From contig CALOBT010000025.1 of NCBI GenBank assembly GCA_942491575.1, positions 2,334,321 through 2,358,320 of the forward strand: 24,000 bases of DNA, read 5' to 3'. Shown here in pieces: positions 11,420-12,541 of this stretch. The DNA is from an uncultured Spirochaetota bacterium. Its GTDB lineage: Bacteria > Spirochaetota > UBA4802 > UBA5550. Numbering within the stretch: position 1 is the first letter of the stretch; each line of letters starts with the position of its first letter. The translations under genes and the position numbers were made by a program. The notes beneath the pieces were generated by a model, which did no database searches, was not told the origin of the DNA, and was given only the letters and a program-made list of their open reading frames with translations.

Positions 11420-12541
11420 ATGAATGTCAAGGCTGTAAATTCTGAACTAAAACGACACTGTGACAGAATTCGGAGGGGCTGCGTAGAATGCAACTCCTGT
11501 GTCAATGACTGTGCCTTTCTCCGTGAATACGGCAATCCATTCCAGATTGCATCTTCATGTTCATACGACAGCATTGCAGATCTCAACCGCGGCTATGAAT
11601 GCAACCTCTGCAGTCTATGTACCGCAGTATGTCCTGAAAATATTGACCCTGCATCCCTCTTTCTGGAAATGCGCAGGGAGACGGTGCGAAGGGGCCAGAA
11701 ACTGAATCACAGGCACCGTGTTCTCCTCGGTTACGAAAGCAGGGGAAAGGCGGGGCGCTACCGTTTTGACGCAGTGACCCCTGAAACGAAACGGATTTTC
11801 TTTCCAGGCTGCACCCTCCCCGGGACCAGGCCGCGCCGGACCTGGGAAATCTTTCAGTACCTGAGAGAAGAAAATCCGTCAACGGGAATGGTTCTCGACT
11901 GCTGCTCAAAGCCATCACATGACCTTGGTCATGAAGACAGGTTTAATAAATCTTTCTACTCAATGCAGAGACGGCTGACTGATACCGGAATCTCAGAAGT
12001 CATTGTTGCCTGCCCTAACTGCTACAATGTCTTTCGCCGTTACGGCAATCTCCTCAAGGTAACCTCCGTCTATGAACACCTTGCAGACTCCCCCACCCAG
12101 GTCATTACAGACTCAGAAGAGGAAATGTTTCTTCACTATCCCTGTGCCATACGCTTCGACAAAAAGGTATATCAGGCAATAGATACAATTATTGAAAAGA
12201 GTGACCTGCGGATAAAAAGAAATCACAGGGGAGCGGATAAGACCTACTGCTGCGGTGAGGGGGGAGGCGTATACCTCTTCAGAAAGGACCTGGTCGCCGG
12301 ATGGATAAAAAGAAATCTGGAGATAGCGGAAGACCGACCCATCATCACTGCATGTGCGGGATGCACCAATATGTTCGGATCAAAAACAGAAACAAGACAC
12401 ATCCTTGACCTTGTATTCGAACCGGAAAAATCAGCAAAGGGGAATGCCCCTGCGAGCAAAACCCCCTTTACTTACCTGAACAGACTTTTCTTAAGGCAGA
12501 AATTAAAACGTTTTTTCAAAAAACAGATGTTGCGGAAGTAA
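11420..12541 (+). CDS. Fe-S oxidoreductase with 2x[4Fe-4S] ferredoxin motifs and two CCG (cysteine-rich) domains (HdrD/GlpC/LutA-like)
   Basis: CVECNSCVNDC and CNLCSLCTAVCPENI, followed by CCG-type domains (FFPGC...DCCSKP...ACPNC; HYPC...YCCGEGGG...ACAGC). The start is ambiguous. ATG 11420 lies 10 nt after the hgcB stop and is my preference. ATG 11357 (ORF track) would overlap hgcB by 53 nt. Confidence 0.8.
   Translation: MNVKAVNSELKRHCDRIRRGCVECNSCVNDCAFLREYGNPFQIASSCSYDSIADLNRGYECNLCSLCTAVCPENIDPASLFLEMRRETVRRGQKLNHRHRVLLGYESRGKAGRYRFDAVTPETKRIFFPGCTLPGTRPRRTWEIFQYLREENPSTGMVLDCCSKPSHDLGHEDRFNKSFYSMQRRLTDTGISEVIVACPNCYNVFRRYGNLLKVTSVYEHLADSPTQVITDSEEEMFLHYPCAIRFDKKVYQAIDTIIEKSDLRIKRNHRGADKTYCCGEGGGVYLFRKDLVAGWIKRNLEIAEDRPIITACAGCTNMFGSKTETRHILDLVFEPEKSAKGNAPASKTPFTYLNRLFLRQKLKRFFKKQMLRK

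Follow-up and report, generated by a model that had tools for sequence, protein, structure and literature searches.

The window analysed here, a 24-kb stretch (24,000 nucleotides, numbered from its first letter) of an uncultured Spirochaetota bacterium, carries the mercury-methylation genes hgcA and hgcB behind an arsR-like regulator gene, and these are followed by a gene for a protein with two CCG-type cysteine-rich domains (hereafter the CCG gene; Table 1). The four genes are closely packed on the plus strand in the order arsR, hgcA, hgcB, CCG gene; the 3′ end of arsR overlaps the start of hgcA, and the CCG gene begins 10 nt beyond the hgcB stop codon (11407–11409). Downstream, the stop codon of the CCG gene lies 2 nt from that of a convergent arsC, which is the final gene of an ars operon on the minus strand. 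The initial annotation had placed the CCG gene fourth in an hgcAB operon and had proposed a three-component HgcABX system, in which its product supplies electrons to HgcB or recycles HgcB thiols. The fourth position was borne out. The HgcABX proposal found no support, since the gene adjoins hgcB in this lineage alone: the collinear locus of the nearest relative retrieved lacks the gene, none of 47 informative hgcAB loci carries a family member downstream of hgcB, and hgcAB is missing from all 13 genomic contexts of homologues. Thus, the adjacency of the CCG gene to hgcB is restricted to this lineage, and the gene probably does not encode a general third component of the methylation system.

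Table 1. Genes of the two convergent operons in the 24-kb window
Feature	Position	Strand	Description and profile support
arsR-like regulator gene	9640..9987	+	First gene of operon; Pfam HTH_5 47.7 bits; NCBIfam metalloregulator ArsR/SmtB 71.9 bits (cut-off 55)
hgcA	9971..11122	+	NCBIfam HgcA_corrinoid 381.6 bits (cut-off 275)
hgcB	11119..11409	+	NCBIfam HgcB_ferredoxin 117.4 bits (cut-off 99)
CCG-domain gene	11420..12541	+	Soluble 373-aa HdrD/EtfD-like Fe-S protein
arsC	12544..13002	-	Thioredoxin-type low-molecular-weight protein tyrosine phosphatase (LMW-PTPase) arsenate reductase; Pfam LMWPc 72 bits; NCBIfam arsC_pI258_fam 139 bits (under cut-off 174)
Remaining convergent ars/thiol operon	13027..17866	-	Pfam and NCBIfam
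Hemerythrin gene	13027-13434	-	Between acr3 and arsC
ACR3 gene	13573-14625	-	
CcdA/DsbD_TM-like protein gene	14711-15430	-	
Thioredoxin gene	15438-15896	-	
ArsE/MTH895 thioredoxin-like protein gene	15915-16148	-	
ArsP_1 permease gene	16184-17515	-	
arsR2	17534-17866	-	

Two start codons are available to the CCG gene. The upstream ATG (11357) would add 21 residues and overlap hgcB by 53 nt, an overlap that the initial annotation had given correctly together with the 10-nt spacing. With ATG 11420, 20 residues precede the first cysteine motif. Because this lead fits that of standalone homologues (8–47 residues) and a weak Shine-Dalgarno sequence (GAGAG) precedes the codon, 11420 is the likelier start. 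The 10-nt gap was scanned, and neither a terminator nor a promoter consensus was found in it. Since the CCG gene follows hgcB directly, it is probably co-transcribed with arsR-hgcAB from an ArsR-controlled promoter; in P. mercurii, hgcAB lie within an ArsR regulon (bioRxiv 10.1101/2022.10.17.512643).

An independent Logan assembly of this strain (L089, ERR9669565; 99.9% identical) has the genes in the same order (arsR-hgcA-hgcB-CCG gene), and its call of the arsR-like gene (ATG 9640) is also identical. Compared with window positions 8760–13318, this assembly has four homopolymer-length insertions or deletions (indels) and zero substitutions. One indel, at the run of G that encodes part of CCGEGGG, yields a shortened database protein of 316 aa (P0001); the others lie in the LytTR gene and in hgcA. 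These indels, including the one behind P0001, are most likely sequencing or assembly errors, and P0001 as the product of a sister-strain pseudogene was rejected, since L089 differs by homopolymer indels alone. The GC content of the CCG gene (0.48; 0.52 at third codon positions, GC3) is indistinguishable from that of the adjoining genes, and no direct or inverted repeats of note flank it; recent horizontal acquisition was therefore rejected.

Domain architecture and fold of the CCG-gene protein

The N-terminal half of the protein contains 2 ferredoxin-type CX2CX2CX3C motifs (Cys21/24/27/31 and Cys61/64/67/71 in the 373-aa numbering; Pfam Fer4_8 27.6 bits, Fer4_17 24.1 bits), and the C-terminal half matches the Pfam CCG family (PF02754) in 2 stretches with 49.2 bits against a gathering cut-off of 20.6. 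The domains are arranged as an HdrC-like dicluster domain (residues ~20–110) followed by 2 CCG domains (residues ~125–215 and ~235–330) and a conserved basic amphipathic C-terminal helix (residues 350–372). The second CCG domain has the pattern CXnCCXnCXXC (Cys242, Cys277-Cys278, and Cys312xxCys315). The initial annotation had recognised the 2 ferredoxin motifs and the 2 CCG domains, both of which stand, but it had called the first CCG domain degenerate; this domain has the full five-cysteine pattern (Cys131, Cys161-Cys162, and Cys198-x2-Cys201), and its DCCxKPSHDLG sequence is a family signature. Across 66 aligned family members, none of the 18 motif cysteines varies. No transmembrane segment was detected (maximum Kyte-Doolittle mean over 19 residues, 0.95), and no flavoprotein gene (electron transfer flavoprotein (ETF), GlpAB, or other) is present in the window, as had been noted initially. 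A cytochrome-b or NarI-like domain or gene is likewise absent from the window.

The AlphaFold2 model, for which the family alignment served as input, has a predicted local distance difference test score (pLDDT) of 91.8 and a predicted TM-score (pTM) of 0.91. The top solved structures in a Foldseek search with this model are those of mycobacterial EtfD (Protein Data Bank (PDB) 9ojn; E 4e-10, query TM-score (TMq) 0.63; alignment of 364 columns), LutA, and HdrB (E 1e-5). The family profile, searched against the PDB sequences, gave the same leading match (EtfD 9ojn, 2e-19, spanning the CCG region), followed by HdrB (2e-6) and HdrC (3e-4). The protein therefore belongs to the CCG superfamily and has the architecture of HdrD and EtfD, with the dicluster domain and both CCG domains in one chain. 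The HdrD/GlpC-like class given to it initially is thus right at the superfamily level. By analogy with HdrB, in which both CXnCCXnCXXC motifs are complete as they are here, both CCG domains would be expected to hold non-cubane [4Fe-4S] clusters.

Comparison with the described systems revealed that the protein departs from each of them. (i) EtfD (Rv0338c; the M. smegmatis protein in 9ojn) shares the dicluster ferredoxin domain followed by 2 CCG domains. EtfD, however, is a membrane-bound Fe-S protein of ~740–1040 aa that has an N-terminal membrane domain and receives electrons from ETF, with EtfAB as its partner, whereas the present protein has 373 aa and no membrane segment, is 20% identical to it, and has no ETF genes nearby. 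(ii) The N-terminal half matches HdrC and the C-terminal half HdrB, which are fused as HdrD in HdrDE (PDB 5odc and 8rvv), but the locus has no HdrA or HdrE partner, the host is a spirochaete-like bacterium with no coenzyme M/coenzyme B context, and the curated scores are far below cut-off. The HdrB identity was rejected on this score (TIGR03288, 17 bits against 345), as were GlpC (NCBIfam PRK11168, 25.1 bits against 278, with glpA and glpB absent from the window) and TfrB, which also fails its curated cut-off. (iii) The nearest curated model is NF045663 (diclust_near_Sec; 195 bits, E 2e-57), whose cut-off of 530 was missed; the match covers model positions 278–664 of 759, which is the whole dicluster-CCG module. 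The N-terminal pyridine nucleotide-disulfide oxidoreductase (PNDR) domain of this model, which binds FAD and NAD(P), is absent from the protein, and identity to the proteins concerned is just 23–30%. In Fusobacteria, examples of NF045663 share their operons with genes for TVP38/TMEM64 (VTT) and rhodanese, the same partners that recur in the family of the CCG gene (see below).

Occurrence and divergence of the gene at hgcAB loci

A total of 85 hgcA loci were compared, comprising the 80 metagenome loci most similar to the window HgcA, which were obtained by an alignment-based scan of metagenome contigs, and 5 genome loci. An hgcB gene follows hgcA in 75 of the 85, and 47 loci are informative in that at least 1200 nt lie beyond hgcB. 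A hidden Markov model (HMM) of the family found no member downstream of hgcB at any of these 47 loci; as a positive control, it detected an unrelated generic CCG protein in another contig (L097, E 8e-6). The initial annotation had itself put forward a neighbourhood survey of CCG proteins after hgcB and had named an adjacency unique to one genome as grounds for refuting its proposal, and this is the outcome obtained. Conversely, hgcAB is absent from all 13 distinct genomic contexts of CCG homologues, and no fusion to HgcA or HgcB exists among the best 120 homologues. The literature searched yielded no report of a CCG or Hdr-like gene beside hgcAB.

The nearest relative retrieved, a contig of a Leptospirales metagenome-assembled genome (L001), is collinear with the window over NUDIX-histidine kinase-LytTR-arsR-hgcA-hgcB-arsC, with amino acid identities of 57–77%. 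In this contig, 36 nt and no CCG gene separate hgcB from the convergent arsC; the CCG gene is the sole difference between the two blocks. Its HgcB is 77% identical to that of the window and likewise ends in CC, and its arsC, directly after hgcB, is 75% identical to the window arsC. This precise single-gene indel between two collinear genomes provides a natural plus/minus comparison.

Across the sample, the gene content beyond hgcB differs greatly from locus to locus (of 135 open reading frames (ORFs) past hgcB, 93 are singletons), in agreement with an earlier report (PMC7438021). The commonest is ACR3, at 5 loci (L015, L020, L023, L073, and L074). An NnrU-like multi-pass membrane protein lies immediately after hgcB at 4–5 loci (L027, L030, L036, and L041), and a 425-aa GAPDH-like protein does so at 3–4 loci (L034, L038, L066, and L027); the latter is reminiscent of the gapdh-arsJ arsenate-resistance pair. 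At ~14 of the 85 loci, arsC and/or ACR3 genes are nearby. Published arsenic islands have, as does the window, an ArsR-like gene upstream of hgcAB and acr3 and arsC beside them (PMC7438021; bioRxiv 10.1101/2022.10.17.512643). Among the descriptions of these islands and the 85 sampled loci, none has a CCG gene that separates hgcB from the ars genes. Just one further CCG-type protein was seen at the 85 loci, a different 701-aa protein with a Fer4 domain and 2 CCG domains (L016, 3379–5481, minus strand; Pfam CCG 97 bits), encoded divergently ~370 nt upstream of hgcA. It was rejected as support for a link between hgcAB and CCG proteins, because 1 in 85 is what chance would give for a domain common in anaerobes.

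The window copy is a divergent one. In a neighbour-joining tree its terminal branch measures 0.27, compared with a median of 0.08, and it deviates at 19 of the 111 positions with conservation of 90% or more, compared with a median of 2 for the other members. Near-invariant residues are among those changed (C123T, D240Y, R255D, and H270R, and likewise E267 and Y311), in residues 111–123 and 240–311; all 18 Fe-S motif cysteines are nevertheless kept. Such a pattern would fit adjustment to a different partner, and it would fit relaxed constraint on a passenger just as well.

The first of these would suit a lineage-restricted accessory dedicated to HgcAB, which passes electrons to HgcB for the reduction of Co(II) to Co(I) or re-reduces a disulfide of the HgcB cysteine pair. 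The gene lies on the same strand as hgcB, separated by a terminator-free gap of 10 nt, and ferredoxin-type clusters in both proteins make electron exchange physically plausible; the substitutions at conserved positions, with the cluster cysteines kept, could reflect such a partner. If the protein truly served HgcB, it would offer a handle on the electron supply of mercury methylation, and the locus would represent a naturally occurring methylation system of three components. CCG enzymes, however, work at thiol/disulfide or quinone potentials of roughly −0.3 to 0 V, far above what corrinoid proteins require for Co(II)/Co(I), and a CCG protein is thus ill suited as the low-potential donor. The initial annotation had described the electron source of HgcAB as unresolved, in agreement with PMC11588087, in which the authors who purified HgcAB propose pyruvate:ferredoxin oxidoreductase (PFOR), hydrogenase, or other low-potential donors. 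Together with the collinear locus that has hgcAB and lacks the gene, the absence of the pairing from the 47 loci and the 13 contexts, and the lack of fusions, these potentials render a dedicated HgcAB accessory unlikely. The comparative data speak against a general role at HgcB, so the label HgcX is unwarranted; for this part of HgcA diversity they give a clear negative for a conserved third hgc gene. A related scenario, in which an anchorless copy was captured into the arsR-hgcAB operon and neofunctionalised into a lineage-specific redox accessory of HgcB, might keep the C-terminal cysteine pair of HgcB, or Hg- or As-thiol adducts, in the reduced state; we regard it as quite improbable.

Relaxed constraint, on the other hand, would be expected of a passenger that reached its place between the two operons accidentally, owes its transcription to read-through, and has no role with hgcAB or ars genes. 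The long terminal branch, the number of deviations, the loss of C123, D240, R255, and H270, the uniqueness of the adjacency, and the local absence of the usual family partners (VTT and rhodanese genes) are all in line with this scenario. A passenger would not, however, be expected to keep its ORF intact, with the conserved C-terminal helix and every one of the 18 motif cysteines, or to give a confident AlphaFold2 model. The neighbour-like GC and GC3 values indicate that the acquisition was not recent, and the spacers of 10 nt and 2 nt suggest long residence and selection for compactness. We thus consider a passenger rather unlikely.

Family partners and a proposed function

A search of 5.8 billion proteins returned 1,759 homologues. 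The only one more than 47% identical to the CCG-gene protein is the copy from the same strain; the family matches have 40–47% identity over 90–100% coverage (E ~1e-95 to 1e-105). The family is unnamed and is annotated as "VTT domain-containing protein" or "(Fe-S)-binding protein" (fusions of YdjX/TVP38 with an Fe-S oxidoreductase). The window protein has all of its signatures, namely DCCxKPSHDLG, CCGEGG, and a PFTYLNRL tail. No family member is characterised, and we found no literature that describes the VTT-CCG fusion or places CCG proteins in ars operons. The CCG gene therefore adds a divergent member to an uncharacterised subfamily of the known CCG superfamily. A plasmid collection yielded only distant relatives fused to a PNDR domain.

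Two kinds of partner recur in the family. The first is the VTT/DedA membrane domain (PF09335), which is N-terminal in 76 of the best 120 homologues (~615 aa) and is absent from the window protein. Among the 13 contexts, a small sample picked for long contigs, fused VTT-CCG forms include those of L093 and L103, a separate VTT gene is directly upstream of a standalone homologue in L097 and nearby in L104, and VTT genes are adjacent or in the same operon in L095 and L096. The second is rhodanese, a gene for which lies within 6 kb of the homologue in 7 of the 13 contexts (L007, L090, L091, L097, L103, L095, and L096) and directly adjoins it in 5 (L091, L097, L103, L095, and L096); by our own rough estimate, this frequency is far over chance for a domain found a few times per genome. 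Moreover, in Fusobacteria a distant relative fused to an FAD domain shares an operon with a TVP38/TMEM64 gene and rhodaneses, in addition to an ABC transporter and a CDP-alcohol phosphatidyltransferase. Because rhodanese and VTT partners recur, the family may handle persulfide, disulfide, or chalcogen species at the membrane, and it looks like an undescribed membrane-linked module for sulfur, selenium, or metalloid redox chemistry. These associations tie a large uncharacterised group of HdrD-like Fe-S proteins to VTT/DedA proteins and rhodaneses, and they are a more promising lead than the hgcAB adjacency.

Arsenic genes accompany homologues as well. The homologue in L091 lies in an island of ACR3, ArsC, DsbD_TM, Trx, ArsP, ArsE, and ArsR genes, the same set that converges on the CCG gene in the window, and its ACR3 is 76% identical to the window ACR3. 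In L100–L102, the homologue is beside ArsS (TIGR04167, 417 bits) and a peroxidase-like partner of ArsS.

The VTT domain, which tethers most relatives to the membrane, also bears on whether the protein could be a quinone-linked module of the EtfD/HdrD/GlpC type that docks peripherally at the membrane through its basic C-terminal helix and couples a soluble donor to the quinone pool by electron transfer. Consistent with such a module, M. smegmatis EtfD is the top match among solved proteins in both structure and sequence, and the basic amphipathic helix is conserved. EtfD and HdrDE, however, have a cytochrome-b or NarI-like component, for which neither a domain nor a gene was found here; the window contains no ETF, GlpAB, or other flavoprotein gene; and the GlpC model scores 25 bits against its cut-off of 278. 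The rhodanese neighbours indicate sulfur-transfer rather than quinone chemistry, and we know of no case in which VTT/DedA serves as a quinone-binding module. A quinone-linked role is thus, in our view, very doubtful.

We consider it probable that the CCG gene is a lineage-specific insertion, co-expressed with arsR-hgcAB, which adds an Fe-S thiol/disulfide redox activity to a metalloid-stress island and does not encode a subunit of the methylase. According to this model, a single anchorless copy of the family would have been inserted between hgcB and the convergent arsC of an otherwise collinear block. The HdrC-like domain with its two [4Fe-4S] clusters would relay electrons to the 2 HdrB-like CCG domains, whose clusters may make or break a sulfur–sulfur-type bond (in some relatives, a quinone is reduced instead). 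The protein could in this way re-reduce disulfide or persulfide carriers, for example thioredoxin and ArsE, that are consumed by ArsC-type chemistry. The assignment of the cluster type, the substrate class, the co-transcription, and the link to the ars island are all predictions of the model.

Several points weigh against it: (i) the substrate was deduced solely from the neighbours of distant relatives; (ii) the CCG gene is oriented with hgcAB and opposite to the ars operon, so that operon membership, if meaningful, would favour HgcAB over the ars genes; (iii) the association with arsenic genes amounts to 2 of the 13 contexts, which could be chance; (iv) neither a VTT nor a rhodanese gene lies in the 24-kb window; (v) a subclade shared with the ars-island homologue (P0047) was considered and rejected, because the neighbour-joining tree does not group the two proteins; and (vi) the sample of hgcA loci is biased to those near this HgcA and does not represent all hgcAB+ genomes.

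The adjoining methylation and ars genes

The corrinoid protein HgcA has the cap-helix motif GINVWCAAGKG, and HgcB is a ferredoxin with two [4Fe-4S] clusters and CC at its C-terminus. HgcA has an N-terminal extension (window 9971–10050) with a CGCG motif (...ISQCGCGTG...). At the same place, many HgcA proteins reportedly carry PCUGP, with selenocysteine, or CC; the Leptospirales HgcA (L001) has no cysteine in the aligned N-terminal stretch. The arsR-like protein ends in ...NDCCE.

In the convergent operon, the ArsP_1-type permease comes nearest, with a score below cut-off, to the NCBIfam model SaoE, which describes the efflux transporter of a proposed selenocysteine-assisted organometallic system; the SO_0444 Cu/Zn efflux family ranks second. 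The ArsE/MTH895 thioredoxin-like gene comes after the permease gene, as in the arsR5-arsP-arsE operon of P. mercurii. The hemerythrin gene has a GC content of 0.34 and a GC3 of 0.35, compared with 0.42–0.50 in all adjoining genes, and may be a separate, more recent insertion. The last part of the CCG coding sequence overlaps a minus-strand hairpin with a T-run (window 12434–12453), ~90 nt past the arsC stop codon. This terminator-like site may end transcription of the convergent ars operon, although the count of such sites in the region equals chance expectation.

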